A DNA stretch of 64,000 nt from Deinococcales bacterium (GCA_031414595.1 JANNVX010000041.1:96001-160000); one strand, 5' to 3'; numbered from the stretch's first letter, positions 1-64,000 are shown. The notes: generated by a model from the sequence alone, not told the origin. Program-made: numbers and translations.

Positions 1-1
1 T

Positions 2-520
2 GTCGAAGAAGCCATGCTGGGCATTCAGTATGCTGGGGTGCAGAGTGTGCAAATTATTTTTAATATGTTTCGGCTTAAACCAAATGATGCTTTTTTTGCC
101 GCCGCTGCCGAAAAACAAGTTGGGATTCTGGCTCGAGTACCGCTTGCCAGTGGTTTACTAACCGGTAAAATGAGTGCTGGCTCGAGTTTTGCCTCCGACG
201 ACCACCGAGCCTTTAACCGCAACGGCGAAGCCTTTGACAAAGGCGAAACTTTTTCTGGTGTACCGTATAATGTTGGACTCGAGGCAGTTGAGCGCCTTCG
301 CCCACTTGTGCCGAATGGCTCGAGCCTAGCCCAATTTGCCCTGCGTTGGATTGGGATGTTCCCACAAGTCACTTGTTGTATTCCAGGCGCAAAAAATGCG
401 TTGCAAGCCGAGCAGAACTTTGCAGCAGCCGATTTACCAGCGCTGACACCAAAGGTAATGCAAGCGGTTCAGAGTATTTATGATGCCCTCATTCGTGAAC
501 ATGTTCATGGCGATTGGTAA
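2..520 (+). CDS. Aldo/keto reductase, 5'-truncated by the window edge
   Basis: C-terminal AKR motifs ARVPLASGLLTGK, LAQFALRW and IPGAKN; the frame is open back to base 2. Confidence 0.9.
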   Translation, partial: VEEAMLGIQYAGVQSVQIIFNMFRLKPNDAFFAAAAEKQVGILARVPLASGLLTGKMSAGSSFASDDHRAFNRNGEAFDKGETFSGVPYNVGLEAVERLRPLVPNGSSLAQFALRWIGMFPQVTCCIPGAKNALQAEQNFAAADLPALTPKVMQAVQSIYDALIREHVHGDW

Positions 521-598
521 GCTCAACCAAGAATGGGTTATCGCTCCAACCTTTGAAAAACTACACACAAAAGCGTTTTATTGGGTACAATGGAATTC

Positions 599-790
599 AT
601 GAAGGCAATTGTGCAAACTGAACTTCTCGCCATTCTCGAGCAAATGCCCGAAGAAGCCAATTGGCATGATTTTAAGCGAGCCATCCAAACTTTTGAACGC
701 ATAGATGAGGGTGTCTTAGACCTCGAGAATCAACGGGTTTGGAGTACCGAAAAACTTCGTAATCATTTCCGAAAGAAGACTTTTTCATGA
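599..790 (+). CDS. Putative type II antitoxin (small protein, partner of the downstream RelE/ParE)
   Basis: Sequence LEQMPEEA...ERIDEG..DLENQRV resembles addiction-module antitoxins; 4-bp ATGA overlap with the toxin gene; TACAAT 7 nt before ATG 599. Confidence 0.7.
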   Translation: MKAIVQTELLAILEQMPEEANWHDFKRAIQTFERIDEGVLDLENQRVWSTEKLRNHFRKKTFS

Positions 791-1134
791 CCCAAGAAGC
801 CGACATTCCAATTATTCCAAGCGAACGTGTTTCATTGCGGATTGAATGGGCAGACCGCGCTCGCCAAGACCTCGAAGAAATTTATGATGCCCTCGAGCAG
901 CATTCAATAGATGCAGCCGACCGCACAGTACAGCGTTTAATCAATGTGATTGAAGATTTGGTCAGCGACCCTAGCCTTGGTGTGGCAGTACCCAATCCGC
1001 GCCATTCGCATATTTTTTCTTTTGGTGAACGCCCTTACCGCATGTACTACCGTAAATTAAATCATAGCCTCGAGATAGTCCATATTGAACAAAGCACCAA
1101 ACGCGGGGCGTTGCTGAATAAACCATTGCGTTAA
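787..1134 (+). CDS. RelE/ParE family toxin
   Basis: IEWADRARQDLEEIYD...AADR...L...P.LG...YRMYYR...LEIVHI is the ParE/RelE pattern. Confidence 0.8.
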   Translation: MTQEADIPIIPSERVSLRIEWADRARQDLEEIYDALEQHSIDAADRTVQRLINVIEDLVSDPSLGVAVPNPRHSHIFSFGERPYRMYYRKLNHSLEIVHIEQSTKRGALLNKPLR

Positions 1135-1172
1135 ACCCTTTCCTCATGGTTTTGCGGTATTTTGTGGAGCGT

Positions 1173-1475
1173 ATGTCTCAACCTACTCAAACGAACCCGC
1201 TTAAATCCTTACAACAAGGCACAATGATGGCAATGGCAACCGACATGAACAACGCGCAAGCTGTTGCGGCTGGTTTATTGCCGTGCTTTGGTTTTGAAAT
1301 CACGGCGGCTGATGAGCAATTCCAAGTCAATGTTGCCGAGTTAAACACGGGGCATGATATTCGTCTGGCTCGAGAAGTCGCGGCTGGAATTCAAGAAGCC
1401 ATGCGCCAATTGGTTGAAAAAATAGACGGACACATTGCCACCCAAGAACCCACCAATATCTCCAAACTGAGTTAA
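1173..1475 (+). CDS. Hypothetical protein
   Basis: About 100-aa ORF with GGAG before ATG 1173; no family recognised. Confidence 0.55.
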   Translation: MSQPTQTNPLKSLQQGTMMAMATDMNNAQAVAAGLLPCFGFEITAADEQFQVNVAELNTGHDIRLAREVAAGIQEAMRQLVEKIDGHIATQEPTNISKLS

Positions 1476-1520
1476 ATCTTGAGTGCTTCCCTTTTGTCCT
1501 TGGTAAGCACTTTTATGGTC

Positions 1521-2279
1521 TTAATCGCAAACCACATTCCCCGAGAAGTAACGGCTGGCAATTCGGTTGATTGAACCATCTTTTTTCATCGCTTCTACCG
1601 AATCACTGAGCAATTTAAGAAGTTCTGTGTTGCCTTTTTTAACTGCCATGGCAATTCTGTCCTCGGTTAAGAGCGGTGAGAGGTTGACTCGAGGCGTGGG
1701 GTATTTTTTGGCAAAGGCTAAAGCGGCTAAACGGTCACTGATGTAGGCATCGGTTTTACCCGACTGCATGGCTTTGAAGGCTTCTAAGTCGGTGGCAAAG
1801 GTGATGACTTGTTTGATTCCAGGGATTTTACGTCCGTACTCAGCAAAGGTAGAGCTTTGTGAGGCAGAAACAACTTTACCTCGTAAACCCTCTGCGTCAA
1901 GTGCTTTGCCGACCAAGGCGATAATCACTGTACCTGTACAGTAATGAGGGATGACAAAATCCACATATTTTTCTCGATTCGCTGTGATGGTGTGCGAAGC
2001 CAATGCCACATCTATTTTACTTTCACCCAGTTTTGTAAAAAGTGAATCAAAGGAAACATTGCGCCACTCGGCTTTTAAGCCAAGGCGCTGAGCTAAAGCT
2101 GCGCCAAAGTCTATTTCAAAACCGACCAAATTGCCTTTTTCAACCGAATAAAAAGGCGGGTAATCCCGACTATTGCCAAAAATGAGTGAGCCACTGGTTT
2201 TGATGTCCGCAACTGGACGAGCCAAGCCCAAAGACAACAAACTGATACCCACCACAAAAGCTCCGATTATAACTTTCAT
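1521..2279 (-). CDS. Polar amino acid ABC transporter substrate-binding protein (family 3)
   Basis: Signal peptide, YPPF, GFEIDF, TITANREKYVDF; GAGGTG RBS before ATG 2279. Confidence 0.9.
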   Translation of the reverse strand: MKVIIGAFVVGISLLSLGLARPVADIKTSGSLIFGNSRDYPPFYSVEKGNLVGFEIDFGAALAQRLGLKAEWRNVSFDSLFTKLGESKIDVALASHTITANREKYVDFVIPHYCTGTVIIALVGKALDAEGLRGKVVSASQSSTFAEYGRKIPGIKQVITFATDLEAFKAMQSGKTDAYISDRLAALAFAKKYPTPRVNLSPLLTEDRIAMAVKKGNTELLKLLSDSVEAMKKDGSINRIASRYFSGNVVCD

Positions 2280-2373
2280 ATACACCTCGAGTGGAAAATG
2301 AATTTGGTTGGAAAGAACCAAATTTCTCAACCATACAAAGAGCCTACACCCCAAATTAAGTTTGGCAAAGTCT

Positions 2374-2485
2374 TTTTACGCATTGTGCAGCAAGACATTT
2401 TACGCATTGTGCAGCAAGACATTTTACGCATTGTGCAGCAAGACATTTACGCATTGTGCAGCAAGACATTTACGCATTGTGCAGC
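2374..2485. repeat. Tandem repeat, about 5 copies of (T)TTTACGCATTGTGCAGCAAGACA (23-24 bp)
   Basis: Head-to-tail copies read directly; the last copy is partial; no spacers. Confidence 0.95.
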
Positions 2486-2490
2486 CAGCC

Positions 2491-3381
2491 TCAAAACACC
2501 ACTGTTTTATTCTGATAGACCAAAACCCGATCCTCGAGATGTGCCTTGACTGCCCTTGCCAGCACTGCCCGTTCAATATCGCGTCCGACCCGGGTTAAGG
2601 CTCTGACATCATCGCGGTGTGTCACCCTCGAGACATCTTGTTCGATAATTGGACCACCATCGAGTTCAGCAGTCACATAATGGGCGGTTGCGCCAATGAT
2701 TTTTACGCCTCGAGCCGCCGCACTTTTGTATGGATTTGCGCCAATAAAAGCGGGGAGGAAACTGTGGTGAATGTTGATGACTGGCACACCGAGTTTTTCT
2801 AAAAAATCTCCACTGAGAATCTGCATGTACCGTGCCAGCACTACAAAATCGGCTTGGTTGTGCAGCAACTCAAGAATTTGCGCTTCCGAGCTTGACTTAT
2901 CTGTGCCTTTTTGTGATTCGACCAAATGATACGGAATTTCAAACGCCGTGACATCTGCCTCGAGTTCGGTGTGGTTGCTAATCACCATTGGGATTTCACA
3001 ATCAAATTCGCCACGCCGTACCCGCCAGAGTAAATCCATTAAACAATGGTCATACTTGCTACACAAAATCGCCATGCGTTTTGGTTCGGCAGCATACGAT
3101 AAACTCCATTCCATGTTGAACGGCACAGCCACCACTTCGGCAAACGCCCGTTCAAATTGGACTCTAGTCATGTCTAAGCCCTCTAAGGAAAATTCTTGAC
3201 GCATAAAAAAACGCCCACCGTCTGGGTTAATGCTGTGCTGGTCTGAAGAAATAATATTGGCGTTGTGATTGAATAAAAACTGCGAAACCGCCGCTACAAT
3301 GCCGCGTTTGTCGGGGCAACTAATCAGTAAACGAGCAGTATTCGGACGGGCTACAACTTTAGAAGAAGGTAGGTCTGACAT
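2491..3381 (-). CDS. purU: Formyltetrahydrofolate deformylase
   Basis: ACT domain ([13 protein letters not shown]), [36 protein letters not shown]. Confidence 0.97.
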
Positions 3382-3434
3382 TAGGCTGTAATTCTAAGGT
3401 CAAATGGGCTTGGCGCAAAGGTCATAATGAGCCG

Positions 3435-4886
3435 ATGACCAAAAACTGGAATCCCCAATATGTGCAGCACCTGCTCGAGCCACATTTTAAGCAAGCCAAA
3501 ACCCATTTTCTATTGCCTCTGCTCGAGATGAGCCGCGCCCATGCAATCATGCTTTTGGGCTGTGACTTACTAGAAAAATCTGTGGCACAAAAAATTCTTG
3601 CTGCCCTAGACCACGTAGACAGCGATTTGCTGGTCTATTCACAACACTTTGAAGACCTGTTTTTTGCACTCGAGGCACAACTGATAAAAAAAACAGATGC
3701 CATCGGTAATCTACAAATTGCCCGTAGTCGCAACGACGTGGATGCAGCCCTGATTCGGATGGTCTTGCGCCAAAAAACCCTCGAGATGATGGCAAGTCTC
3801 GAGCAATTGGCATTTGTGCTGCACACCAAAGCCTTAGAGGGTGTGACTTGGCTAATGCCGGGCTACACCCATCACCAACCCGCCCAACCGACCACTTTAG
3901 GGCATTACCTGACTGGGATTCTGGGTGTGTTAGGGCGCGACATGCAGCGCCTAAAAGCCGCTTACTCGAGCATCAACGCCTCACCACTTGGGGCTGTTGC
4001 CATGACCGGCACAGGATTTCCCATTAACCGTCAAGTGATGGCAGATTTACTTGGATTTGATAGTATTCTAGAAAATGGGATTGATGCAGTTGGAGCAGCC
4101 GACCACAGCTTAGAATTACTAAGTGCTTTACAAATTTGTAACACCACCCTCTCGAGACTGACCCATGACCTGATTTTTTGGGCAAGCCAAGAGACCAACT
4201 TCTTTCGGGTTGCCGATTCCTTTGTGCAAATTAGTTCAATCATGCCACAAAAACGCAACCCTGTTGTGTTAGAACATATCCGCGCTAAATTGGCTCGAGC
4301 CAGTGGCGCAAGCCAGAGTGCGTTTAATATGTGCGGGAACATTCCATTTGGGGATGTCAACGATGTGGCTGAACCACTCCTGCCCGTTAGTTTGGCGGCA
4401 CTCGAGGACAGCCAAGCGGCTGTTTTGTTACTCAGTGCGGTGCTTGAAGTTTCAAACTTTAATGTTCTAAAAATGCAGGACGCGGCTGGGCAGCATTTTA
4501 TGACTGCGACGGGCTTGGCGGATGCGCTGGTTGGTATTGGTTTAACTTTTAAGCAAGCCCACGAGGTTGTTTCAAAAACCGTGGACTATGCGATGCAGCA
4601 CAACTTAAAAAGCACAGACATCACAGCTTTGATTGTTCAAAGTGTCAGCAGCATTCCACTCGAGATAACCGATTCATTTGTACAAGATGCCTTAGACCCA
4701 AACAACTTTGTGCAACGCCGCACCACATTTGGTGGTAGTTCCCCCAAAACTGTTTTGGTTAGTCTCGAGCGGATAAAAATTGAACTCGAGCAGAGCAAGA
4801 ACTGGCGACTCGAGCAGAAACAAAAATTAGTAGATGCCCAAGAAAAACTTAAAAGCATAAATGGACAAATTCTTAATCCTCTGTAA
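3435..4886 (+). CDS. argH: Argininosuccinate lyase
   Basis: ARSRND, MPGYTHHQPAQP and SSIMPQKRNP fumarate-lyase signature. Confidence 0.92.
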   Translation: MTKNWNPQYVQHLLEPHFKQAKTHFLLPLLEMSRAHAIMLLGCDLLEKSVAQKILAALDHVDSDLLVYSQHFEDLFFALEAQLIKKTDAIGNLQIARSRNDVDAALIRMVLRQKTLEMMASLEQLAFVLHTKALEGVTWLMPGYTHHQPAQPTTLGHYLTGILGVLGRDMQRLKAAYSSINASPLGAVAMTGTGFPINRQVMADLLGFDSILENGIDAVGAADHSLELLSALQICNTTLSRLTHDLIFWASQETNFFRVADSFVQISSIMPQKRNPVVLEHIRAKLARASGASQSAFNMCGNIPFGDVNDVAEPLLPVSLAALEDSQAAVLLLSAVLEVSNFNVLKMQDAAGQHFMTATGLADALVGIGLTFKQAHEVVSKTVDYAMQHNLKSTDITALIVQSVSSIPLEITDSFVQDALDPNNFVQRRTTFGGSSPKTVLVSLERIKIELEQSKNWRLEQKQKLVDAQEKLKSINGQILNPL

Positions 4887-5433
4887 TTTTCTTGTACCAA
4901 TCAAATTCTGTATCACGTTTACCAATTGTGTATCGCGCACAAATTTCAATGTTCTCAAATACTTCAATAAGTTCAGGTCGGGCAATACCGTTTTTTTCTG
5001 CCCACATCCGCACTAAACCCATGCTGCTGATGATTTGCATGGTCGGCACTCGCTCGAGAATAACTCGGCGGGCTTTACGGTCATCGGTGACTAAACCAGC
5101 TTTTCTATGAATTGCAGCAGCCGCCGTCATCGCTTCACCATCATCAATTCTATTTTTATTGTCTGGGTCTATAAATTCTAAATACAACTCGAGTTCTACT
5201 GGTGTTAAATCTGCCTCGATATGAATAATCCCAGCCTAAACAACATCGCTTAAATCCAGTGCTACAGCCTCGAGACGCACTTGCCCATCGCGCCGATGAA
5301 CAAATTGACTTTCATTAGGATAAACTTTTGGAATCACTGAAAATCGCAATTCGAGGGCTTTGGCAATTTGCTCCAATCGCCCAGAAGCAGATAAATTCAA
5401 CAAGAAACAAGAATCCAAGAAATACCAATCCAC
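4873..5433 (-). pseudogene. PIN-domain-like protein gene interrupted by one in-frame TAG at 5238-5236
   Basis: ORFs 5236..5433 (YFLDSCFLLNL) and 4873..5187 (IDDGEAMT, LVTDDRKAR) are in the same frame; the read-through is ...LSDVV*AGIIHIEADLTPVELELYLEF..., about 186 aa with PIN acidic motifs. Confidence 0.8.
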
Positions 5434-6668: not shown

Positions 6669-6675
6669 ATGGGTA

Positions 6676-6712
6676 AGCCTAAACGGTTTATACTAAAATG
6701 TCAAATTTAGTA
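6676..6712 (-). promoter_or_regulatory. Sigma70 promoter (leaderless) with an overlapping inverted-repeat operator for the XRE/ImmA gene
   Basis: Minus strand TTGACA-17bp-TAGGCT-7nt-ATG(6668); inverted repeat TACTAAA-8bp-TTTAGTA (6691-6712) brackets the -35. Confidence 0.7.
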
Positions 6713-6748
6713 ATTGTTAAATGCCTTAAATACTAACTTTGTCAGAAT

Positions 6749-7687: not shown

Positions 7688-7705
7688 GGTCTGATTATTT
7701 GCATT

Positions 7706-8553: not shown

Positions 8554-8564
8554 AATAATTCTCC

Positions 8565-15127: not shown

Positions 15128-16117
15128 TTAGTTGCCCCAGCAGTTGGCAAGTCCGAATGCGACATTCTTGCTACCAATACCGACCAAAGCACGCTTGGCA
15201 ATTAAGGTCACGCCAGTGTCCACATAGCCCTTGGCTTTGACACCAGTCTTGGCGTATTTGACACCCGCAGCCACACCCAAAGCAGCCATTTTCAGTGGGT
15301 ATTGTTGGCTGGTTGCCACAATCACGTTCTTGTCTACGTTACGAACGCCTTCACAGCCACCGTCTACGCTAAAAATAGCGGCGGTTTTCTTGGCAGCTTT
15401 AAGGGCTTGGAATGCACCTGCGGCGGCTGGTTCGTTGATCGTGTAAACCACGTTAATGTCTGGGTTTTTCTGCAAGCAGTTTTCCATGGCGGTTTGACCT
15501 TTGGCTTGGTCGCCGAAGGTATCTTGGCTGCATACAACTTGGGCAGTGGTGGCAAGGTCTGCTGTGTCTGCGTCTATGTTATCTGCGCCTAAACCAGCCA
15601 AAAAGCCGTTGTGACGAGCAATCCCAACTGGATGACCAGGGAAAAGGTCGAGCATCGCAATTTTAAGGGTTTTGCCTTTGAGTTGGGCGGCGGCGTATTC
15701 ACCAATCAGAACGCCAGCCTTAAAGTTGTCGGTAGCATAGAGTGCGTCTACGGCATCGGCTGGTTCGGTTGGGCTGTCAAGCGCAATCACTTGAACACCA
15801 GCCGCTTGGGCTTTTTTGATGGCTGGAACGATTGCCTTAGAATCTGATGGGGTAATCAGAATAGTTTGTGCGCCAGCCGCTACAAAGTTCTCAATCGCAG
15901 CCACTTGCCCAGCGTTGTCACCGTCTTGCTTACCGGCAGCACTTAAGAATTTTGCACCCAAACGAGCCGCTTCTTTTGAAGCACCTTCTTTCATTTTGAC
16001 AAAAAACGGGTTGGATTCGGTTTTGGTGATTAAACCAATGATTGGTGACTTGCCTTGGGCAAGTGCCAATGCCAAGGTGCTTACGCCAAGGGCAGCTAAC
16101 AGAGCAATTTTACGCAT
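15128..16117 (-). CDS. frcB: Sugar ABC transporter substrate-binding protein (FrcB-like, fructose/ribose/mannose type)
   Basis: Signal peptide; LITKTESNPFFVKMKEGA; INEPAAAGA; SVDGGC; ATSQQYP. Confidence 0.85.
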   Translation of the reverse strand: MRKIALLAALGVSTLALALAQGKSPIIGLITKTESNPFFVKMKEGASKEAARLGAKFLSAAGKQDGDNAGQVAAIENFVAAGAQTILITPSDSKAIVPAIKKAQAAGVQVIALDSPTEPADAVDALYATDNFKAGVLIGEYAAAQLKGKTLKIAMLDLFPGHPVGIARHNGFLAGLGADNIDADTADLATTAQVVCSQDTFGDQAKGQTAMENCLQKNPDINVVYTINEPAAAGAFQALKAAKKTAAIFSVDGGCEGVRNVDKNVIVATSQQYPLKMAALGVAAGVKYAKTGVKAKGYVDTGVTLIAKRALVGIGSKNVAFGLANCWGN

Positions 16118-22365: not shown

Positions 22366-22533
22366 TTTCGCCTTTCGCCTTTCGCCTTTCGCCTTTCGCC
22401 TTTCGCCTTTCGCCTTTCGCCTTTTGCCTTTTGCCTTTTGCCTTTTGCCTTTTGCCTTTTGCCTTTTGCCTTTTGCCTTTTGCCTTTTGCCTTTTGCCTT
22501 TTGCCTTTTGCCTTTTGCCTTTTGCCTTTCGCC
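22366..22533. repeat. Heptamer microsatellite (TTTCGCC)8(TTTTGCC)15(TTTCGCC)1
   Basis: 24 head-to-tail 7-mers counted directly. Confidence 0.97.
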
Positions 22534-22593
22534 TTCCCTCTAAGCCATTTGATTTATTTGCAAAATGAAACTATTTTAGTTTAGAATAATCGC

Positions 22594-23091
22594 GTGGTTA
22601 AACCGTCTTTAAGTTCTGAACCTTCGTCTGGTCTGATTGTCTATAAATCTCATGCTCAAGCGCTGCTCGAGGCGTGGTGGTCGTTTGGACAAACCATGCG
22701 GCAACATGTCATCCCCAAAGTGATTGGCGAACTCGACCTTGAATTTAAGGATTTTTTGGCTTTGGTTGCCATTCATGACGGCGCACTTTATCCCAAGCTG
22801 ATTTGCACTCGGCTTGCCACCAACCCTTCAGACATTTCTCGGATTCTCGAGAAGCTCGAGGAAAAAGAACTGGTCACTCGAGCGCTTGACCCCGAAGATT
22901 CGCGCCGTATTCGGGTGGTTTTGACTGCCCACGGGCTTGCCACACTCGAGCATAAGCGGCAAGCCATGGCAGAACACATCCTCAAAGCGGTAGAAGATAT
23001 GCCTGCCAACGAACTCGAGCGTTTTGCCAATACCATGAAACATCTGACCGACGGCATCAAAGCCCAATTCAAAGACGATACGAACCAATAA
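22594..23091 (+). CDS. MarR family transcriptional regulator
   Basis: ISRILEKLEEKELVTR..DPEDSRRIRV.LT..G; TAGAAT 6 nt before the GTG. Confidence 0.92.
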   Translation: MVKPSLSSEPSSGLIVYKSHAQALLEAWWSFGQTMRQHVIPKVIGELDLEFKDFLALVAIHDGALYPKLICTRLATNPSDISRILEKLEEKELVTRALDPEDSRRIRVVLTAHGLATLEHKRQAMAEHILKAVEDMPANELERFANTMKHLTDGIKAQFKDDTNQ

Positions 23092-28032: not shown

Positions 28033-28482
28033 TTAAGCTTTCTTTGCGGCTGGTTTTTTCGCAGCAGCTTTCGCGGCTGGCTTTGCGGCTTTTGGAGCAG
28101 CCTTTGCTTTTGCGGCTGGTTTAGCAGCTTTAGGAGCGGCTTTTGCAGCTTTTGGTGCAGCAGCTTTTGCGGCTGGTTTAGCGGTAGCTTTGGCTGCCTT
28201 TGGAGCAGCTTTTGGTGCAGCTTTCGCGGCTGGTTTAGCAGCAGCTTTGGCTGCCTTTGGAGCAGCTTTTGCGGCTGGTTTAGCAGCTTTTGGTGCAGCA
28301 GCTTTCTTAGCTGGAGCTTTTACTGCTGTCGCTTTGGCTGTGGCTGTTGCTTTGGCTGGTTTAGCAGCTTTAGGGGCAGCTTTTGCTGCCTTTGGAGCAG
28401 CAGCTTTCGCGGCTGGTTTAGCAGCTTTTGGTGCAGCAGCCTTTGCAGCTTTCGGTGCAACTTCTGTCTTGGTTTTTGCCAT
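28033..28482 (-). CDS. Histone H1-like Lys/Ala/Pro-rich repeat protein
   Basis: Made almost entirely of AAPKAAKPAAK repeats; strong RBS upstream. Confidence 0.85.
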   Translation of the reverse strand: MAKTKTEVAPKAAKAAAPKAAKPAAKAAAPKAAKAAPKAAKPAKATATAKATAVKAPAKKAAAPKAAKPAAKAAPKAAKAAAKPAAKAAPKAAPKAAKATAKPAAKAAAPKAAKAAPKAAKPAAKAKAAPKAAKPAAKAAAKKPAAKKA

Positions 28483-28905
28483 ATCACTCACCCCCTTTTG
28501 TTTGAGTCAACGTACTTACCCCAAACTGCGATACGGGTTCTAGGGATACTTCCCGAGCCGCGCATTGAAGCGGAACAACTATATGTAGGGGTTTAATGGG
28601 ATTAAGCACCACAGAGAGTGTAGCATGTTTTTATCTTGTTGTGTGCAAGTTTTTGACAAAATTGTACTTACTCGAGATTGAAAAAAATAGACTTGAGATT
28701 GAAAAACAAATTTATAATGTCCTGTACAATTTTTTCTTTTGATTGCAAAAAATAACAAAAATAATACTTCTAAAATAATAGTATAAATATTATCACAATT
28801 TCAAGCGAATCTCGAGAATAAAAATAAAAATTTCGAGCCAAAAACACCTACTTTCAACTCGAGATTTACAAATTTTAGTTTTGAAATGCCCAATGCGGTA
28901 AATAC

Positions 28906-35821: not shown

Positions 35822-36786
35822 TCGAAGCGCGACGAATTTTAATCATCGAAGATAGTTTACTGATGCGTAACTTGTTGGTCGGTTTACTCGACGGGGCTGG
35901 TTACGGCGATATTCGAGCGGTCGGGACACTCGAGCAAGGACTGCGCTTATTGGGAATGCGAAGCGAACCTGGCGAGCAATTCAGTCTGATTTTAATGGAT
36001 AAACTCCTGCCCGATGGTGACGGTATAGATGGCATCCGCGAAATCAGACAAATTCCGCACTTAACCGAAAAACCAATTATCATGGTCACGGGTTTTGATG
36101 ACCGCGAAACCCTGCGCGAAGCCTTTGACGCTGGGGCAAGTGACTTTATCAACAAGTCCTTTGATGAAACCGAATTGCTGGCTCGAGTCCGCAGCGCCCT
36201 GCGTTTAGATGCTGCCATCGAAGCCGCCAAGAGCCGCGAAGCCGATTTGCGGCGTTTAACCCGAGAACTCGAGAAGCTCTCCTACACCGATGGTCTAACC
36301 AAAGTGACCAATCGCCGTGGTTTTGACGCTGCCTTAGAACGGGCATGGGTTGAAAGTTATGAGCAGCGCAAACCCTTAAGTGTGGTGATGCTCGATGTCG
36401 ATCATTTCAAAAAGTACAACGATGCCCTCGGACACCAACAAGGTGACGAGTGTCTAAAAGCCGTGGCTGCCGCCTTAGAACAACAAGTCAATGCCAGTGG
36501 CGAAGCCCATATGTTGGCTCGCTACGGTGGCGAGGAATTCGCCGCAATTCTCCGCACCAATGCCAGTACCGCCCAGTATGTTTCCGAAAAACTCCGCTCG
36601 AGTATCCAAGAATTACAATTGGTACACCCCAACTCTACCGTTGGCAGTTTTGTCAGCATCAGTGTTGGTTTAACCACCGTTATTCCAGATGAACGCAGCA
36701 CAGCATCCGATTTACTGGCGGCGGCTGATTCGGCTTTGTACCAAGCTAAAAATACGGGTCGTAACCGTGTGGTGATGAAGTCTTGA
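35818..36786 (+). CDS. Response-regulator diguanylate cyclase (REC-GGDEF)
   Basis: IIEDS, LMDKLLPDGDG; TDGLT, DVDHFKKYND, RYGGEEF. Confidence 0.95.
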   Translation: MIEARRILIIEDSLLMRNLLVGLLDGAGYGDIRAVGTLEQGLRLLGMRSEPGEQFSLILMDKLLPDGDGIDGIREIRQIPHLTEKPIIMVTGFDDRETLREAFDAGASDFINKSFDETELLARVRSALRLDAAIEAAKSREADLRRLTRELEKLSYTDGLTKVTNRRGFDAALERAWVESYEQRKPLSVVMLDVDHFKKYNDALGHQQGDECLKAVAAALEQQVNASGEAHMLARYGGEEFAAILRTNASTAQYVSEKLRSSIQELQLVHPNSTVGSFVSISVGLTTVIPDERSTASDLLAAADSALYQAKNTGRNRVVMKS

Positions 36787-43789: not shown

Positions 43790-44851
43790 GTGAGTTTACG
43801 AGTTACCCCTGTCACCAATCCCCTCGAGTGGGATGCCTTGGTTCAAACCTTTACTTATCATAGTGCGCTGCAAGGCTGGGGCTTTGGCGAAGCAAGGCGT
43901 GTTACAGCTTGGACACCGCACCGCCTAAAACTCGAGCGGGACGGCGTGGTTTTTGCAGCTGCTCAAGTGCTGCGCCGTTCGCAATACGGCTTAGGGTATT
44001 TGTACTGCCCCCGTGGACCTGCCCTAAACAGTCTGGGGGATTTACAGGATGTGGCAACTGCCTTAAAGTCATGGGCAAAAATGACCGATGTCAGCCTCAA
44101 AATTGAGCCATGTGTACCAATTTCGTCACTTGGCGACCCAAGCATCATGCCCGAAAAAATCGGAGTTTGGAGTTTAGCCGAAACAATCCAACCCACCCAC
44201 ACGGTTTTAATCAGTCTCGAGGAAAGCGAAGATGTGCGCCTGTCCGCCATGCACCAAATGGCAAAACGCAACACCAAACAAAGCCTCAAAGAAGGTGTGA
44301 CCGCCGAAACCGATGATGACTTCGAGGCATTCTGGGAACTTTTTAGCGAGACCAATACGCGCTCAAAATTGTTGCAACGCTCAAAAGCCTATTACCAAGC
44401 GATGTTCAAGGAGTGCGCCAAGTACGGTGGTGAAGCCAGAATCATCAATGCTCGCTGGAATGGTAAGGCGCTGGCAACCTGCTTTGTGATTGGGCTGGGC
44501 AACGAACTGTGTTACTTGTATGGCGGCAGTATCCGAGCCGAGCGTGAAGAAGGACAACGTGACCCGAAAGCCCCAAATGGCGCGTATTGGGGCATGATTC
44601 GGTTTGGGCTGTCTCGAGCCTACAAGACTTTGGATTTATACGGCATCCCGAAGCGCATAGACGAAAGCACAAGCGATAAAATCAGCAATGGAGTCTATGA
44701 GTTTAAGATGCGGCTTGGTGGGCAAATGGCGTACTTTCCAGCTTATGAAATTGCACTTAATCCGCTATCATCTGCCGTCAATACTGCCCTGCGCTGGCGG
44801 CGAAAAGCCATGAATCGTAAAGCTCGAGGGAACGAAAATGATGTCTTATAA
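43790..44851 (+). CDS. FemABX family peptidoglycan bridge glycyltransferase
   Basis: LQ.W.FG, Y.PRGP, KIEP, YLYGGS, D.YG, G...FK...GG. Confidence 0.88.
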   Translation: MSLRVTPVTNPLEWDALVQTFTYHSALQGWGFGEARRVTAWTPHRLKLERDGVVFAAAQVLRRSQYGLGYLYCPRGPALNSLGDLQDVATALKSWAKMTDVSLKIEPCVPISSLGDPSIMPEKIGVWSLAETIQPTHTVLISLEESEDVRLSAMHQMAKRNTKQSLKEGVTAETDDDFEAFWELFSETNTRSKLLQRSKAYYQAMFKECAKYGGEARIINARWNGKALATCFVIGLGNELCYLYGGSIRAEREEGQRDPKAPNGAYWGMIRFGLSRAYKTLDLYGIPKRIDESTSDKISNGVYEFKMRLGGQMAYFPAYEIALNPLSSAVNTALRWRRKAMNRKARGNENDVL

Positions 44852-46241: not shown

Positions 46242-46290
46242 ACGCTATTGTATAGGCAAACGGCGCAAGAAAAAAGCCAAAACTGATTAA

Positions 46291-46355
46291 ACCGTAGGGG
46301 CGAGGCTTCTTGATTCTAAACGCGCACCTGTCGGGCAGAATCGCATGCCTCGCCC
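46291..46355 (+). repeat. GTAG-type REP with the conserved structured insert
   Basis: ACCGTAGGGGCGAGGC-TTCTT-GATTCT-AAACGCGCACCTGTCGGGC-AGAATC-GCATGCCTCGCCC. Confidence 0.85.
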
Positions 46356-48696: not shown

Positions 48697-48710
48697 GCAA
48701 CGAGCAAATC

Positions 48711-48795
48711 AGGGCGAACACAAGGTTCGCCCCTACGGTTGGACACGACTTATTTTGCAATTTAATCGTTAGGGGCAGACCTCTGTGTCTGCCCT
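48711..48795. repeat. Inverted doublet of REP elements
   Basis: AGGGCGAACACAAGGTTCGCCCCTACGGT ... TAGGGGCAGACCTCTGTGTCTGCCCT. Confidence 0.8.
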
Positions 48796-48832
48796 GTAAG
48801 AAAACTTTTTTTAATATTCTCTTTAGGAATCC

Positions 48833-49588: not shown

Positions 49589-51129
49589 TGCGTTTAGGTC
49601 TTTACATTCCTTTTGCGGGTAAACCCGATGTGGCTGCCTCATCTCGAGCCTTAAATGCTGTTAAAGCCATGCGTGAACATCTGCTTGAGGGTATTACTGA
49701 TATTATTCCAAGTTATTTGAATCTTTATTTTGAATTTGATACTCGAGTGACCACCAAAAAAGCTGTGCAGGATTGGGCATTGTCTTTTCTAAACCGTAGG
49801 GGTGGGGCTGTCTTGACCCTAAACACGCACCTGGCGGGCAGGGTCGCTTGCCTCGCCCAACCTAGCCAGTCCATAGAAATTCCAGTCCAGTACAACGGTC
49901 TTGACCTCGAGTTTATCGCCAAAAAAACAGGGTTGACCATCCCAGACATTATCCAAACCCACTCGAGCCATGTCTACCACGCTTTTGCCGTTGGTTTTAC
50001 GCCTGGTTTTCCGTTTCTTGGTGTGTTACCGCCCCCTTTGCATTTGCCGCGTCGAGAAAACCCTCGAGCAAGAGTAGAGGCACATTCGGTGGGGATTGCC
50101 ATGGCGCAAACCGGTGTTTATCCGTTCTCGAGTCCGGGCGGTTGGCATCTGCTCGGTACTTCTGGTGTAGCAATGTTTGACCCGCACCGAGAACCGCCAT
50201 TCTGGGTGCAAGCGGGTGATGCCGTGCGTTTTGTGCCAGTCCAACAAGTACAAATCCCGACCCTCGAGTCAGTATCGTTGTTGCCACTCGAGCCAAAATT
50301 CCCAGTCTTAAAACTCGAGCAGGCGGGTTTGCAGACCTTGTTGCTCGATGCTGGGCGGGTACAGGTCGGTCATCTTGGTTTGGCGCAGTCGGGGGTACTT
50401 GACGCTAGAAGTGCGGCTCGAGCAAATGCCGTTGTGGGCAACGCAGCAGACGCGCCACTGCTCGAGCTAACCCTGCTTGGTGGGGTATTTACGGCACTGC
50501 GTGATGTGGTGCTTGGCTTTGCGGGGTACGGTATGAATCCAATTTTGAATGGTGAAATAATACCCGCCGCCTCGAGTTTTTTATTGCGCCGTGGACAAAC
50601 CCTGTCTTTTAAGCCGAGCAGTACGGGGGTGCGTGGTTATTTGAGTGTCGCGGGTGGTTTTGAGGGCGTACCGATGTGGAATAGTATCAGTTCAGATGCT
50701 CGGGCGAGTTTGGGGCGAGCTTTACAAGCGGGGGATGTGCTTGGGGCAAGGTTGCTTAAATCCGTCCGAGCAGGTTTTTACCTATCACAACCGAGTCTCG
50801 AGCCTAGGGCTTTTCGACTTCTTCAAGGGGCGCAAGCCAATCCCGAGGCTTTTGTAGCCCTGACCAGTGCCAATTTTACGGTTGAAGGCGGCGACCGGAT
50901 GGGTTTGCGTTTATCGGGGGCGTTGCTGGGTGGCGGTGATGTTCCCAGTGAAGCTACCCCGCTTGGTGCGGTACAAATCACATCTGGTGGGCAACCGATT
51001 ATTTTGCTGCATGACCGTGGGCGGATGGGCGGCTACACCAAGCCAGCCGTGGTGCATCCAGCCGATTTATGGCGCTTAGCGCAACTGCGAGATGGTCAGG
51101 GTTTGCGATTCTCGAGATTTTTGCACTGA
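49588..51129 (+). CDS. pxpBC: Fused 5-oxoprolinase subunits B and C (CT_C_D + CT_A_B)
   Basis: IPSY, IEIPV.Y, GFTPGF, SPGGW.L.G; then D.GR, R.G.RL, GAVQ, GGY. Confidence 0.88.
   Translation: MRLGLYIPFAGKPDVAASSRALNAVKAMREHLLEGITDIIPSYLNLYFEFDTRVTTKKAVQDWALSFLNRRGGAVLTLNTHLAGRVACLAQPSQSIEIPVQYNGLDLEFIAKKTGLTIPDIIQTHSSHVYHAFAVGFTPGFPFLGVLPPPLHLPRRENPRARVEAHSVGIAMAQTGVYPFSSPGGWHLLGTSGVAMFDPHREPPFWVQAGDAVRFVPVQQVQIPTLESVSLLPLEPKFPVLKLEQAGLQTLLLDAGRVQVGHLGLAQSGVLDARSAARANAVVGNAADAPLLELTLLGGVFTALRDVVLGFAGYGMNPILNGEIIPAASSFLLRRGQTLSFKPSSTGVRGYLSVAGGFEGVPMWNSISSDARASLGRALQAGDVLGARLLKSVRAGFYLSQPSLEPRAFRLLQGAQANPEAFVALTSANFTVEGGDRMGLRLSGALLGGGDVPSEATPLGAVQITSGGQPIILLHDRGRMGGYTKPAVVHPADLWRLAQLRDGQGLRFSRFLH
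49793..49858 (+). repeat. REP element with structured insert lying in frame inside pxpBC
   Basis: ACCGTAGGGGTGGGGC-TGTCTT-GACCCT-AAACACGCACCTGGCGGGC-AGGGTC-GCTTGCCTCGCCC, 66 bp, homologous to the copies at 46291 and 12964. Confidence 0.8.
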
Positions 51130-55368: not shown

Positions 55369-55398
55369 AAGTAATAGCATCTCGTGTTTTTGCCTTCT

Positions 55399-55456
55399 CG
55401 TCAACTACCCCGTATGCGCCAAGCGTCAACTACCCCGTATGCGTGAAACGTCAACT
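55399..55456. repeat. Direct repeats CGTCAACTACCCCGTATGCG with a 25-bp period
   Basis: Exact 20-mers at 55399 and 55424, plus CGTCAACT at 55449. Confidence 0.9.
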
Positions 55457-55498
55457 GGCAATTTGGCGCACTGAGTCCAAAACACGGTACAATTTATC

Positions 55499-56398: not shown

Positions 56399-56410
56399 TG
56401 TGTCAGCGAC

Positions 56411-56444
56411 TAGCTTCTAGTCTTTAGCTAAAGACTAGAAGCTA
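56411..56444. repeat. Perfect 34-bp palindrome between convergent genes
   Basis: TAGCTTCTAGTCTTTAG|CTAAAGACTAGAAGCTA. Confidence 0.85.
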
Positions 56445-56446
56445 AT

Positions 56447-57049: not shown

Positions 57050-57077
57050 AAGTGCATTCTACCCGTAAACTCGAGAA

Positions 57078-57608
57078 ATGCGAATTGCCTTACTTTCAGA
57101 TACGCACGGATTTATCGATGATGAAATCCTTGAACACTGCCGAGAAGCCGACGAAATCTGGCACGCTGGAGACATGGGTGCTAGGGCTGTGATGACTCAA
57201 CTCGAGACTTTACAAAAACCAATTATTGCTGTCAGTGGAAATGTGGACAATCAGGCACTGCAACTCGAGTACCCCGAAGACCAGCAATTTAGCAAAGAGG
57301 GGGTCAGTGTTTGGATACGCCATATTGTCGGGCATCCAAAACGTTACAACCCAGAAATTCTCGAGGTCTTACGCCAGCCAGCCCAGCGTCCGCAATTACT
57401 GATTTGTGGTCATTCGCACATCCTCGAGATTGCCAGAGATGCTTTTGGGGTGCTGTACATCAATCCCGGGGCAGTTGGACATCATGGGGTACATCAAAAA
57501 CGCACGATGGTACGGTTTAGTCTCGAGAACGGCAAAGTTTTGAATGTTGAAGCGATTGACTTTGGTACTCGAGGACGCAAGGCAAAGAATTCAAATCCAC
57601 AATTTTAA
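57078..57608 (+). CDS. YfcE-like metallophosphoesterase
   Basis: SDTH, HAGD, GNVD, GHSH, NPG. Confidence 0.9.
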   Translation: MRIALLSDTHGFIDDEILEHCREADEIWHAGDMGARAVMTQLETLQKPIIAVSGNVDNQALQLEYPEDQQFSKEGVSVWIRHIVGHPKRYNPEILEVLRQPAQRPQLLICGHSHILEIARDAFGVLYINPGAVGHHGVHQKRTMVRFSLENGKVLNVEAIDFGTRGRKAKNSNPQF

Positions 57609-60569: not shown

Positions 60570-60690
60570 GGTCTTAGTCTAACAAGTTATGATGCCTCAT
60601 GGCTCGAGAATCAAAAATACACTTAGTATTCAGCACAAAAAGTAACCCCTCACCAACTCCCCCACTCGCGCTTTCCTCCCCAAGGTTTTT

Positions 60691-61566
60691 ATGAGTTGGA
60701 TTGCGTATGCACGGGCTTATCCGACGGTGGCGGGTCATTCGGTTGTGGGTAATGTTCGGGTAAAACGCAATGTTGGTGGTGGAACGGTGGCGGCAAGGGA
60801 TATTGTTGTTTATCTTCCGCCAAGTTATTCTAAAATTAAAACCGCACATTATCCTGTGTTGTACATGCACGATGGGCAGAATTGCTTTGACAATAAAACC
60901 AGTTACTCGGGGGAATGGGCAGCCGATGAAGCCGCTGAACGACTCGCCAAGCGTGGTCTCGAGTGTATTATTGTGGCTGTGCCGAACGCTGGGGTGGCGC
61001 GGATTGATGAGTACGGTCCTTGGTTTGAAGCTAAAATTAAATTACCGGGCATTAACGGCGGGGCGGGTGGTCGGGCAAACGAGTACCTTGATTATCTGGT
61101 GAATGTGGTTAAACCGCTTGTGGATTTGAGTTTTCGCACCCTAACCGAGGCTCGTTTTACAGGTGTAGCGGGCAGCAGTATGGGTGGAATCATGAGTTTG
61201 TATGCACTCTTGGAGGCATCGGATATTTTTGGGTTTGCTGCCTGCTTCTCGAGTGCTTTTTGGGTTGGTAAAGCTGGGTTACTCAAGCACGTGCAGACCC
61301 ATATTGCCCCAAATACGCGGATTTACTTGGATTGTGGTCATCGAGAAGGTGGGCAGTCTAAGGACAGTAAATCATATCTCGAGGACAGTCGTAAAATTGC
61401 TGGAATGTTGGTCTCGCAAGGCTGTTACGATTTGGTTTTTTTGGAGGACGAAACGGGTGTGCATTCAGAATCCGAATGGCGTAAGCGTTTCCCAGCCATG
61501 CTTGAATGGTTTTTGAATCCGCGTCGAAAACCCAAAACCGACATGTGGCTCAAACCCTCAAGTTAA
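60691..61566 (+). CDS. Putative esterase (alpha/beta hydrolase, IroE/Fes-like)
   Basis: VYLPPSY, YPVLYMHDGQN, GSSMGG, HSE..W. Confidence 0.88.
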   Translation: MSWIAYARAYPTVAGHSVVGNVRVKRNVGGGTVAARDIVVYLPPSYSKIKTAHYPVLYMHDGQNCFDNKTSYSGEWAADEAAERLAKRGLECIIVAVPNAGVARIDEYGPWFEAKIKLPGINGGAGGRANEYLDYLVNVVKPLVDLSFRTLTEARFTGVAGSSMGGIMSLYALLEASDIFGFAACFSSAFWVGKAGLLKHVQTHIAPNTRIYLDCGHREGGQSKDSKSYLEDSRKIAGMLVSQGCYDLVFLEDETGVHSESEWRKRFPAMLEWFLNPRRKPKTDMWLKPSS

Positions 61567-61578
61567 AGGAGAAAAATA

Positions 61579-62058
61579 ATGGCGAATGTTGAATCGTTTA
61601 ATCTTGACCACACCAAAGTACAAGCCCCTTATGTGCGTCTGGCAGGTCGGCACATCACCAAGCATGGGGATACAATCACCAAATTTGATTTGCGGCTTGC
61701 CCAACCAAATCAAAGCGCCCTCGAGACTGGGGCAATGCACACCTTAGAGCATTTGCTGGCGGGTGGTTTACGTGACCATTTAAGCGGCGTGATAGACCTT
61801 TCGCCAATGGGTTGCCGCACAGGATTTTATCTTGTCCATGAAGGTGAAATCAGCCCCGAAAAGGTCAAAACGGCGCTCGAGAAAACCTTGGCTGGGGTAG
61901 CAGAAATTGTTCATATTCCGGGCGTGTCTGAACTTGAATGCGGTAATTACCGTGACCATAACCTCGAGTCGGCGCAGTTTTGGGCAAAAACCACGCTGGA
62001 ACATGGTTTTCGGGTGCAAGAAACGATTAAAATCCCAGAAGGAAGCTCGAGCCAGTAA
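61579..62058 (+). CDS. luxS: S-ribosylhomocysteine lyase (AI-2 synthase)
   Basis: ESFNLDHT, HTLEH, SPMGCRTGFY, CGNY..H. Confidence 0.97.
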   Translation: MANVESFNLDHTKVQAPYVRLAGRHITKHGDTITKFDLRLAQPNQSALETGAMHTLEHLLAGGLRDHLSGVIDLSPMGCRTGFYLVHEGEISPEKVKTALEKTLAGVAEIVHIPGVSELECGNYRDHNLESAQFWAKTTLEHGFRVQETIKIPEGSSSQ

Positions 62059-62061
62059 AAC

Positions 62062-62472
62062 TTATTTTTTGCTGATAGCACACCCAAAACCAGCTGTTTT
62101 GCGATCATTTTGATACTGTGCGCCAATGCCTTTATTGGCTAGGGTCTGTTCGGTTAAAGGTACAACACAAGACAGTTGTTCGGTGCTGGAAATTTGAAAA
62201 ACCATCACTAAGTTTTTACGATCACTCGGCACAACCCCAGAACCCGCCAAGGCTGGGGCGGTGGTTTTGAAGGTAGCATAAACCCAGTTGGTCTTGTCTA
62301 AGCGTGGTGTCCCAGTCAAAGAAAAATCAAAAGCGATTTCTTTTGGAGCGTTAAAAACCACCTTCCAAACCTCATCTGATTTGAGTGGGAAGTCAAAATT
62401 GAATTTTGAAACAAAAGCAGGACTACAAGAAGCAAGAAACAACGCCAAAGCAACACAAACAAACCATTTCAT
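62062..62472 (-). CDS. Hypothetical lipoprotein
   Basis: Lipobox LASC after a hydrophobic stretch. Confidence 0.65.
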   Translation of the reverse strand: MKWFVCVALALFLASCSPAFVSKFNFDFPLKSDEVWKVVFNAPKEIAFDFSLTGTPRLDKTNWVYATFKTTAPALAGSGVVPSDRKNLVMVFQISSTEQLSCVVPLTEQTLANKGIGAQYQNDRKTAGFGCAISKK

Positions 62473-62491
62473 TCCCCGAGAATACCTGACT

Positions 62492-64000
62492 TTAGCGCTG
62501 TGTGGGTTGTCCTAACAAACCAGCTTCGGGGTTTTGCATCAGGGTGCGCCAAGTTCCAGTCTCGAGGGAATAGGTTATTGCTCCATCTCGGTCGGTGCGA
62601 AACGCCAAAGGGCGGTATGGTTTTAGGCGTTCCAAAACATCTTTACTTGGGTGTCCGTAAGTGTTGTCTGCGCCGCTCGAGACGACCACGGCTTTGGGTG
62701 TGGTACGACGCAAAAGTGTTTGGCTGGTGCTAAATCGGCTGCCATGATGCGCCAGTTTTAAGACATCTACTGCGCCCGGATTCATCGTCTCTTCGACTTC
62801 GCTGGGCGCATCGCCTAAAAAAAGCAGACGCTTACCTTTGAACTCGAGACTGAATGCCACCGAATTGATATTGTCGTCCTCCAAATTAAAAGGTGGGGCT
62901 GGATGCAAGAATTGAATCGTGGCTGTACCAAGTTTCCACTGCATTCCACGCCCAACCACTCGAATTGGAATGTTACGGCTTTTGGCAGAAGCAATCATTT
63001 CATCCCAAACAGTATCTTCGCCTGTTGGCTTATCATGCCCAATCATCAGGCTCGAGACTGGAAAATGACGCAGTACCGCATTCAGCCCCTCGATGTGGTC
63101 AGCATCACCGTGTGTAGCAATCACGGTCAGGCTTTTGACCCCAAGGCTACGCAATGCCGGCACAACTACCCTTGCGCCCATATCAAAGTCCGATTGGGGT
63201 GTTCCACCACCATCCACAAGAATATCGCCAACGGGCAATCGAATCAGGGTGGCATCGCCTTGTCCAACGTCCAAGTAAATAATTTCGGCTCGAGAACGAT
63301 TGGGTAATGCTGTGACCAACACCGATGCCAGCATAATTGCCAGCATTTGATACGGACGCAACCAACCTTGCAGTGCCGCGTAAATAGCCATCACACTGGC
63401 ATAAAACGCCACATAACCCAGTGTGGAAACACTGCCCCACTCGAGAACAGGTGCATTAGAAAAAAACTTTGCACCCTCGAGCATGAGCCAAGCCAAATGT
63501 TGGATGACCAAGTTCACAATCCAACCTGCCGAGCCAAGCAGCCCCGCGATAAAACTCAGAATGACAAGCGGCAACATTAGCAGTTCTGCAAACAAATTAC
63601 TGATTGGAGAAATGAGGGGAATTGCGCCAAAACTTGAGGCGCTTAATGGCAAAGTCAGTGCTTGAGCAGCAAGGGTCGTGACCAGCACACCAATTACCCA
63701 GAACTTGACTCGAGAAAAAGTCAGGAATTTTAAGCCCCAAAGATGGACGAACCTAGGGTTTAAGTCGTTTTCATCTGGGCTTTTAAGGCGCAAGACCGCA
63801 AGAATTGGCAACACAAAAAAGACCATGCCCAGTACCGCCAAATACGAGAGTAGCCAGCCTAAATCTGCCAGCCAAGCCGGTTGCCAAAGCAGCGTCAGAA
63901 CAGCACTTAAACCAATCGTGGGTAAGACCTCGAGTCTGCCACGCCCTAACCAACCCGTGACCAGCACAGCTAAACCCATGAGAATTGCTCTCGAGACACT
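62492..64000 (-). CDS. comEC: ComEC/Rec2 DNA internalisation protein, 5'-truncated by the window edge
   Basis: Competence TM domain (G..LSY.AV) plus MBL domain (DVGQGDA, TH.DADH, HHGS, N.YGHP, RTD..G). Confidence 0.93.
   Translation of the reverse strand, partial: SVSRAILMGLAVLVTGWLGRGRLEVLPTIGLSAVLTLLWQPAWLADLGWLLSYLAVLGMVFFVLPILAVLRLKSPDENDLNPRFVHLWGLKFLTFSRVKFWVIGVLVTTLAAQALTLPLSASSFGAIPLISPISNLFAELLMLPLVILSFIAGLLGSAGWIVNLVIQHLAWLMLEGAKFFSNAPVLEWGSVSTLGYVAFYASVMAIYAALQGWLRPYQMLAIMLASVLVTALPNRSRAEIIYLDVGQGDATLIRLPVGDILVDGGGTPQSDFDMGARVVVPALRSLGVKSLTVIATHGDADHIEGLNAVLRHFPVSSLMIGHDKPTGEDTVWDEMIASAKSRNIPIRVVGRGMQWKLGTATIQFLHPAPPFNLEDDNINSVAFSLEFKGKRLLFLGDAPSEVEETMNPGAVDVLKLAHHGSRFSTSQTLLRRTTPKAVVVSSGADNTYGHPSKDVLERLKPYRPLAFRTDRDGAITYSLETGTWRTLMQNPEAGLLGQPTQR

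Follow-up and report, generated by a model that had tools for sequence, protein, structure and literature searches.

Highly iterated palindromes (HIPs) have been described from the cyanobacteria (Elhai 2015, PMC4390886; Xu et al. 2018, PMC5861425). HIP1, the 8-bp word GCGATCGC, and the alternative palindromes of that phylum are short, exact, and hyper-abundant; they occur in genes in all frames and in spacers, are conserved beyond neutral expectation, and characterize whole lineages. In the available text of recent reports, HIP1 is recognised by the methylases DmtA and DmtC (PMC13756078) and current thinking ties it to transformation (PMC13756078; 10.1101/2024.09.10.611283). Here we describe a 64,000-nucleotide stretch of DNA from a Deinococcales bacterium (GCA_031414595.1, JANNVX010000041.1:96001-160000; hereafter the window), throughout which the 6-bp palindrome CTCGAG is iterated, as it is in the genome from which the window derives (G000). 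CTCGAG in this organism is a HIP-type palindrome, a denser counterpart in another phylum. The original prediction, made from the sequence of the window, was of a HIP1-like phenomenon, and the description is apt: CTCGAG is a short exact palindrome, hyper-abundant in every reading frame and between genes; its positions are conserved, and it is a trait of the whole lineage that foreign islands lack. Its density is 5,176 copies per Mb, compared with 300-2,700 per Mb given for HIP1 in the accessible part of PMC4390886. In contrast to HIP1, which has conserved methylases, no conserved cognate methyltransferase was found for CTCGAG in four Pfam classes across six genomes. CTCGAG also sits, unlike HIP1, in a genome that avoids most other palindromes; the HIP1 core CGATCG occurs there only 3 times in 4.49 Mb.

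Uptake sequences provide another point of comparison. The DNA uptake sequence (DUS) of Neisseria and the uptake signal sequence (USS) of the Pasteurellaceae occur about once per kb and are non-palindromic, and the Neisseria receptor, ComP, is known. Like CTCGAG, they are over-represented in core DNA, poor in foreign islands, and present in coding DNA at a cost to proteins. Their one-off variants are also enriched, and their accumulation is explicable by recombination-coupled molecular drive. CTCGAG differs from them in being a 6-bp palindrome at 5 per kb, and the related Thermus has no uptake specificity. Enterobacterial Chi and GATC/Dam are likewise frequent short words, tied to recombination or methyl-directed repair. 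However, Chi is asymmetric and orientation-dependent, and GATC, the density of which in E. coli is similar to that of CTCGAG here, is about as frequent as chance predicts and relies on Dam and MutH, whereas CTCGAG is a 6-mer far above chance.

Full-text searches of the literature gave no report of CTCGAG iteration in Deinococcota; the supplements of PMC4390886 and PMC13756078 may list further palindromes. The accessible part of Elhai 2015 (PMC4390886) covers cyanobacteria only and does not include CTCGAG. Elsewhere, the word is reported with 5-methylcytosine in a Halorubrum strain (PMC8112702, as far as its available text goes) and in intergenic DNA of the honey bee, which is unrelated (PMC3903499, likewise).

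The window contains 357 exact CTCGAG sites, or 5.6 per kb. Across 100 dinucleotide-preserving shuffles of the window, the mean was 7.65 (standard deviation 2.82, maximum 14) and none reached 357, so the high iteration claimed for the window is upheld.

1..64000: CTCGAG array of 357 sites, in genes on both strands, in all frames and in spacers, with at least one site in 62 of the 66 called open reading frames (ORFs)
132..1074: the eight sites named by the original prediction (132, 181, 278, 319, 635, 722, 892, and 1069), each an exact match

G000 comprises 4,488,778 bases in 120 contigs, with 47.2% guanine plus cytosine (GC) and a completeness of 94%. Four sequencing runs contain the window in full and may be its source, and seven others contain 5-20% of the words sampled from it. 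G000 carries 23,235 copies of CTCGAG (5.18 per kb, or about one per 190 bp); the hexamers that come next in frequency, which overlap CTCGAG itself, are a third as numerous. The observed/expected ratio (O/E) is 24, 44, and 18 under Markov models of order 0, 1, and 2, respectively; higher orders absorb the word's own sub-words. When CTCGAG is masked from the background, 293-346 copies are expected and the excess is 67-79-fold. Most of the TCGA tetramers in the genome (23,235 of 33,474) lie inside CTCGAG.

This abundance extends through the window's family. Loci of relatives that match the GH38 protein of the window (67-95% protein identity) carry 5.2-6.3 CTCGAG per kb, compared with 0-0.6 per kb at the compared loci of unrelated phyla. 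In a survey of 161 genomes of the order, with genome sizes rounded, all 16 sampled genomes of the window's family (f1) have 4.3-6.7 sites per kb; these represent five genera and include one single-contig genome. The densities elsewhere are 0.3-2.6 per kb in family f2, 0.7-2.9 in f4, and, within f5, 0.6-1.1 in genus g9 and 1.4-3.4 in g13, g22, and g24; the intermediate values in these three families are raw densities in high-GC genomes. Family f3 is the opposite of f1: in all 43 of its genomes CTCGAG is scarce, at 26-1,193 copies each (0.01-0.27 per kb). CTCGAG iteration is thus a real, lineage-wide feature of one uncultured Deinococcales family.

The pressure behind it acts on DNA, not on translation. 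We called 3,856 long ORFs in G000, covering 88% of the genome. Coding DNA contains 88% of the sites, and the density is nearly the same in coding (5.15 per kb) as in non-coding DNA (5.35 per kb). Coding sites number 12,092, 4,001, and 4,304 in frames 0, 1, and 2, which are read, as the original prediction stated, as Leu-Glu, x-Arg-x, and x-Ser-Ser or x-Ser-Arg. Ten genome-wide shuffles that preserved both protein sequence and codon usage gave 1,316, 402, and 276 sites in these frames, leaving excesses of 9.2-, 10.0-, and 15.6-fold; the control is conservative, as the codon usage of each gene already includes CTCGAG. The enrichment therefore neither disappears when codon and dipeptide usage are controlled nor is limited to one frame. 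It is this frame-independent excess, together with the equal density in coding and non-coding DNA, that places the pressure at the level of DNA.

The pressure is also strong enough to alter proteins. The codon pair CTC-GAG encodes 12,092 of the 20,155 Leu-Glu pairs in the proteome, whereas CTC accounts for 7.9% of the other Leu codons (10,341 of 130,390) and GAG for 20% of the other Glu codons (11,763 of 58,625). Leu-Glu is itself the most over-represented dipeptide, with 20,155 occurrences against 9,040 expected (O/E 2.23); for comparison, the O/E is 0.98 for Glu-Leu and 1.50 for Ser-Ser. Codon choice is hence overridden, as is, in part, amino-acid sequence. Genes in the most conserved quartile carry fewer sites than the others (4.2 versus 5.4-5.7 per kb), as would be expected if protein constraint counteracts a drive.

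Comparison with related genomes, in which sites were aligned between species, demonstrates that CTCGAG is actively maintained. For the close species G005, 60 contigs were aligned to G000 (209,473 columns, 93.3% identity): 988 sites were common to both, 99 were private to G005, and 112 were private to G000. G005 keeps 89.8% of the G000 sites, compared with 72.5% for any hexamer. With 40 contigs of G001 (98,220 columns, 90.3% identity), 495 sites were common, 59 and 72 were private, and 87.3% were kept, against 61.5% for any hexamer. In more distant species of the same genus, 61-74% of the window's sites are kept versus 26-28% for any hexamer. Third codon positions give the same picture. In the comparison with G005, the third base of CTC diverges in 14 of 443 cases (3.2%) inside CTCGAG and in 73 of 360 (20.3%) elsewhere; the values for GAG are 12 of 439 (2.7%) and 80 of 429 (18.6%), and those for four-fold sites overall are 16.9%. 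Synonymous sites within CTCGAG thus evolve about six times more slowly than elsewhere. An amino-acid difference accompanies 39 of 124 private coding sites. The sites are in steady turnover, with gains about equal to losses.

This turnover has an unusual form. Motif and non-motif alleles differed at three or more of the six bases in 37 of 211 cases (17.5%) for G005, compared with 6.6% of differing hexamers, and in 33 of 131 cases (25%) for G001, compared with 8.1% of controls (Fisher p=4e-9). Restricting the comparison to events whose 100 flanking bases show good conservation leaves the excess in place (10 of 74 versus 4.0%), and some changes of three to four bases sit in near-identical flanks, with divergence of 0.01-0.04. 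In a three-species alignment of the window (44,271 positions), 218 sites were common to all three species, 44 were found in two of them, and 29 were found in a single one. Of the gains that could be strictly polarised, eight of 13 change at least two bases and four of 13 at least three; seven of 44 polarised losses change at least three, where the control is 5.5%. Where several bases differ, the allele opposite CTCGAG is most often TTAGAA/TTCTAA, the preferred-codon spelling of Leu-Glu in this genome. Single-base partner alleles have no strong excess of CpG transitions (56 at C3/G4 versus 46 at C1/G6). The following loci exemplify these patterns.

4269..4274: multi-base turnover; TTAGAA in the window, CTCGAG in G005, TTAGAG in G001 and G004, with flanks otherwise almost identical
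36334..36339: tree-conflicting alleles; TTAGAA in G000, G001, and G004, CTCGAG in G005 and the distant G003 and G007
44767..44772: tree-conflicting alleles; ATCATC in G000 and G001, CTCGAG in G005, G003, G006, and G007, with four of six bases and one linked flank base different

Judging from the four-fold rate, independent point substitutions are an implausible source of such multi-base, tree-conflicting alleles at 7-10% divergence. Recombinational allele replacement or concerted conversion can produce them.

Low-GC foreign islands in the genome lack the word. Site density climbs with the GC content of the gene, from 0.81 per kb (GC below 0.36) to 6.5 per kb (GC above 0.52), and counts per gene are near Poisson (dispersion 1.31). 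Among the 1,852 genes of at least 900 bp in G000, 29 have no site, compared with 4.5 expected; 18 of these 29 have a GC content of at most 0.41, and 11 genome-wide have an ordinary GC content (0.45-0.51). There are 11 CTCGAG-free gaps of at least 2 kb, all with 32-44% GC. Eight were inspected: five contain ORFs with recognisable Pfam domains, two have no Pfam match, and one has a NOV_C domain only. The low-GC CTCGAG-free islands (29-40% GC) have sharp borders and include C46:36667-41608, C30:4279-7534, C49:33402-35798, and C102:12375-14486, among others. Their genes encode polysaccharide synthesis functions, an ABC-3C-type defence pair (DUF2326 and CTD12/Mrr_cat), a PNP_UDP_1 fusion, a NOV_C protein, a SUKH protein, and a clostripain. 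These islands are probably recent acquisitions. The restriction-modification genes of G000 mostly have normal CTCGAG density. Repeats of at least 500 bp total only 3.6 kb in G000, too little to clock the gain of motifs.

Within the window, the original prediction named two genes as free of CTCGAG, and both are.

15128..16117, minus strand: periplasmic sugar-binding protein (frcB-like) gene without CTCGAG; GC 0.51; Poisson probability of zero sites 0.006
28033..28491, minus strand: gene, identified by translation, for a histone H1-like protein rich in Lys, Ala, and Pro, without CTCGAG

The first is one of the 11 site-free genes of ordinary GC content counted above. The lack of sites in the second is trivial, as its amino acids cannot encode CTCGAG; the protein has 152 amino acids with AAKPAAK-type repeats and no Pfam match.

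On the basis of these patterns, we favour, with a probability of roughly 40%, the explanation that CTCGAG owes its maintenance to a bias, coupled to homologous recombination, towards alleles with the exact hexamer. In its most likely form, the word would work like a DNA uptake or self-recognition sequence. CTCGAG-rich fragments would be preferentially taken up or processed during natural transformation, and alleles without the motif would then give way, one short patch at a time, to motif-bearing alleles from relatives. This would be a molecular drive as Maughan, Wilson and Redfield use the term. In a variant, the recombination heteroduplex would be repaired with a bias towards the motif-bearing strand. 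Newly acquired foreign DNA would start without CTCGAG. As with DUS and USS, the word is over-represented in resident DNA and scarce in acquired DNA, and its one-off variants are enriched rather than depleted (transitions 1.35-2.3-fold, changes at outer positions 1.2-2.0-fold), as expected of a graded preference. The original prediction proposed either a methylation- or repair-driven system or an uptake or recombination signal; the latter half appears to fit the data better, because of the enriched one-off variants and a turnover that resembles allele replacement. Also in keeping with the favoured explanation are the comEC gene and minor-pilin operon of the lineage, the slightly even spacing of the sites and their near-Poisson counts per gene, and the motif-free low-GC islands; recent work on HIP1, so far as its available text goes, points the same way. 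The presence of comEC in the window, adduced by the original prediction, is correct, but the gene is generic and of normal site density and lends no specific support to uptake.

62492..64000, minus strand: comEC (Competence and metallo-beta-lactamase domains), with 10 sites in the ORF at 4.3 per kb, a normal density

The minor-pilin operon lies on contig C8 of G000 (C8:37431-43102; L467:6432-12102) and comprises three N_methyl pilin-like ORFs and a 1,194-amino-acid protein without a Pfam match. The latter evolves unusually fast, being 44-49% identical between species with about 93% DNA identity. We considered the proteins of this operon as readers of the motif and rejected them, as the 1,194-amino-acid protein is hypervariable and has no clean association with motif density. 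It was not found in genera g3 and g4 of the family, nor in genus g22 (2.7-3.4 sites per kb). A 377-amino-acid pilin-like protein had no sequence match in the PDB. Separately, two major-pilin-like genes on contig C42 lie within a CTCGAG-free gap.

Several observations weigh against a recombination-coupled bias of the uptake type. Known uptake sequences are 9-12 nt long and non-palindromic. A 6-mer offers a quantitative contrast only, at about 5 per kb in self DNA versus 0-0.6 per kb in unrelated DNA. No receptor for CTCGAG was identified among the pilin-operon candidates; the 1,194-amino-acid protein turned up in 11 of the family's 15 other genomes, as well as in genera where the motif is moderately dense, and went undetected in the other 4. 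The divergence of flanks at multi-base events is not raised (0.096 versus 0.116 in controls, not significant), which gives no support to the import of long tracts from distant donors. Compensatory gain and loss, which should occur if local density is what counts, amounted to five cases within 50 bp (5.2 expected) and 16 within 100 bp (9.7 expected; p=0.03). We rejected compensatory site turnover as a process on these grounds: there is none up to 50 bp and only a weak signal at 100-200 bp, which rate heterogeneity could explain. Finally, recombination together with direct selection on individual sites would lead one to expect most of these patterns as well.

It is possible, though somewhat doubtful, that CTCGAG is installed as a unit, with TTAGAA, for instance, becoming CTCGAG in a single step, and that it spreads through a recombining family. 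Such installation would be performed either by a short-patch, motif-biased recombination or uptake system or by a dedicated writer.

Maintenance through methylation is an unlikely alternative to the recombination-coupled bias. According to this explanation, a CTCGAG or TCGA methylase would mark the sites, and methyl-directed repair or a methylation-dependent function would favour the methylated word. CTCGAG and TCGA are classic methyltransferase targets. The word is identical to the targets of XhoI/PaeR7I-type (CTCGAG) and TaqI-type (TCGA) restriction-modification systems, and G000 has about 25 ORFs with DNA methyltransferase domains, two of them with TaqI-type specificity domains (TaqI_C). 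However, restriction targets are normally avoided; CTCGAG is instead enriched 24-79-fold, and the candidate methylases are sporadic, so it does not behave as a restriction-modification target. The search for a CTCGAG or TCGA methyltransferase recommended by the original prediction yielded TaqI-type candidates in G000 that are sporadic in relatives. The methyltransferase set differs between species. The two TaqI_C methyltransferases were rejected as family-wide cognate enzymes, since each has orthologues in only 2 of 12 relatives, and 6 of 17 genomes of the family, the single-contig G033 not among them, have TaqI_C domains.

A broader search led to a similar result. We searched for PF01555, PF00145, PF02384, and PF02086 in G000, G006, G009, G010, G011, and G012, which represent five genera, and compared the matches by BLAST. 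No orthologue group was common to all six genomes within these four Pfam classes, the metagenome-assembled genomes (MAGs) being 87-94% complete and rare classes not having been searched in relatives; G010 had no match to a C5 methylase. A divergent or unclassified methylase could have escaped the four Pfam searches or fallen in the incomplete parts of the MAGs. Vsr (PF03852) had no match in the 94%-complete G000. The XhoI nuclease family PF04555 also had none in G000, which is uninformative, as control genomes were silent too. The enriched one-off variants speak against a drive by very-short-patch repair, because such a drive predicts their depletion, and the single-base partners described above lack a strong CpG-transition excess. 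The methylation half of the original prediction thus finds no support in these searches, which gave sporadic TaqI-type candidates, no orthologue group of the four classes common to the six genomes, no Vsr, and no depletion of one-off variants. In its favour, HIP1 is recognised by two methylases and, in the available accounts, its effect on transformation is methylation-dependent.

Most six-base palindromes are strongly avoided in G000. The O/E is at most 0.1 for 34 of the 64 six-base palindromes, and at most 0.05 for 27 of them, versus 2% of hexamers that are not palindromes; the latter have a median O/E of 0.84, compared with 0.09 for the palindromes. Examples, with their copies in 4.49 Mb, are GGGCCC (0 copies), TGCGCA (2), GGCGCC (3), CGATCG (3), and GAGCTC (6). 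Among tetramers, GGCC has 152 copies (O/E 0.01) and GATC is also depleted (O/E 0.26). This avoidance and the roughly 25 methyltransferase ORFs are consistent with a long-standing importance of restricting incoming DNA in this lineage.

Another explanation is that the sites form a binding array for an abundant chromosomal protein involved in nucleoid structure, alignment of genome copies, repair, or segregation, with individual sites or their local density under direct selection. A palindromic hexamer suits a dimeric DNA-binding protein, and the uniform density across genes, the slightly regular spacing, the constrained synonymous sites, and the weak compensation at 100-200 bp are consistent with this view. 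Gaps between sites average 191 bp with a coefficient of variation of 0.99. Gaps shorter than 20 bp reach 0.3-0.5 of the expected number and those of 400-1600 bp 0.8, and gaps of 50-200 bp are in excess (1.2); spacing is thus slightly more even than random, with no clear period beyond the codon period of 3. Nevertheless, we consider a binding array improbable. Selection on about 23,000 individual sites would be a heavy load, no conserved candidate reader was identified, and an array does not by itself explain multi-base allele replacement. It also leaves unexplained the normal density of sporadic restriction-modification genes and the low-GC islands without sites.

As a side observation on spacing, doublets of the form CTCGAG-N-CTCGAG (spacing 7) occur 101 times in G000, compared with 17-54 times for spacings of 8-14. 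Their middle base is free and their flanks unrelated, and some lie inside terminator-like hairpins.

A dedicated writer, namely an enzyme system or templated patch conversion that installs the hexamer several bases at a time independently of exchange between cells, is very unlikely. It would account for the excess of three- to four-base changes in near-identical flanks, and about 60% of the gains appear to be multi-base. However, no candidate genes were found, the polarised sample is small (13 gains), and the tree-conflicting alleles shared across species are explained more simply by recombination than by a writer. We know of no precedent for a hexamer-writing system.

There is next to no chance that the iteration is a by-product of base, codon, or amino-acid usage, a dispersed repeat, or an assembly artefact: frame 0 (Leu-Glu) does hold 59% of coding sites, and high-GC relatives using CTC and GAG do reach 1-3 sites per kb, but the synonymous shuffles, the equal density in spacers, the lack of a flanking consensus, the occurrence in 16 of 16 family genomes, and the conservation of sites between species refute it. 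The flanks of CTCGAG are flat, apart from slightly too few C in front of the word and slightly too few G behind it. In this, and in having 88% of its sites in coding DNA, the word is unlike repetitive extragenic palindromic (REP) or miniature inverted-repeat transposable element (MITE) repeats, in which a unit longer than the core is conserved and most copies are intergenic.

Viral contigs with clustered CTCGAG were also considered and rejected. The 80 analysed, from at least 126, mostly have 64-72% GC, are rich in GAGCTC and GGCC, and are not of the f1 type; two viral loci among the 80 (GC 52-55%) are only remotely similar to it.

The window contains other repeated DNA. A heptanucleotide microsatellite, TTTTGCC repeated 24.3 times with 98% matches, occupies 22366-22535 in the spacer upstream of the ORF at 22594-23091, and is a possible slippage-prone tract. 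A GC-rich intergenic repeat family of about 60-75 nt is represented at 46289-46355, 49789-49863, and 48703-48820. Its members have hairpin potential and no CTCGAG; they give 14-26 BLAST hits in G000, and many copies at 85-97% identity occur in every genome of the same genus. The segment at 44868-44909 matches many places in relatives and has no second copy in G000.

Three decades after HIP1 became known, its function is only now emerging, in cyanobacteria only. The Deinococcales provide an independent case, in another phylum and with another word, at about twice the top density quoted for HIP1, with effects on the proteome and no conserved methylase found. With this case, iterated palindromes prove to be a general phenomenon, one that can be uncoupled from methyltransferases as its explanation. 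The multi-base changes and tree-conflicting alleles hint, in a testable way, that the sites are moved by recombination rather than by point mutation and selection. In practical terms, CTCGAG is a strong marker of resident versus foreign DNA in these MAGs. If installation as a unit proves true, CTCGAG would be the first palindromic, hexamer-sized tag of self DNA and the first uptake-type signal in Deinococcota, and one without a conserved methyltransferase. The genomes of this family lend themselves to the study of how genome-wide word usage is shaped by the way in which a cell deals with incoming DNA.

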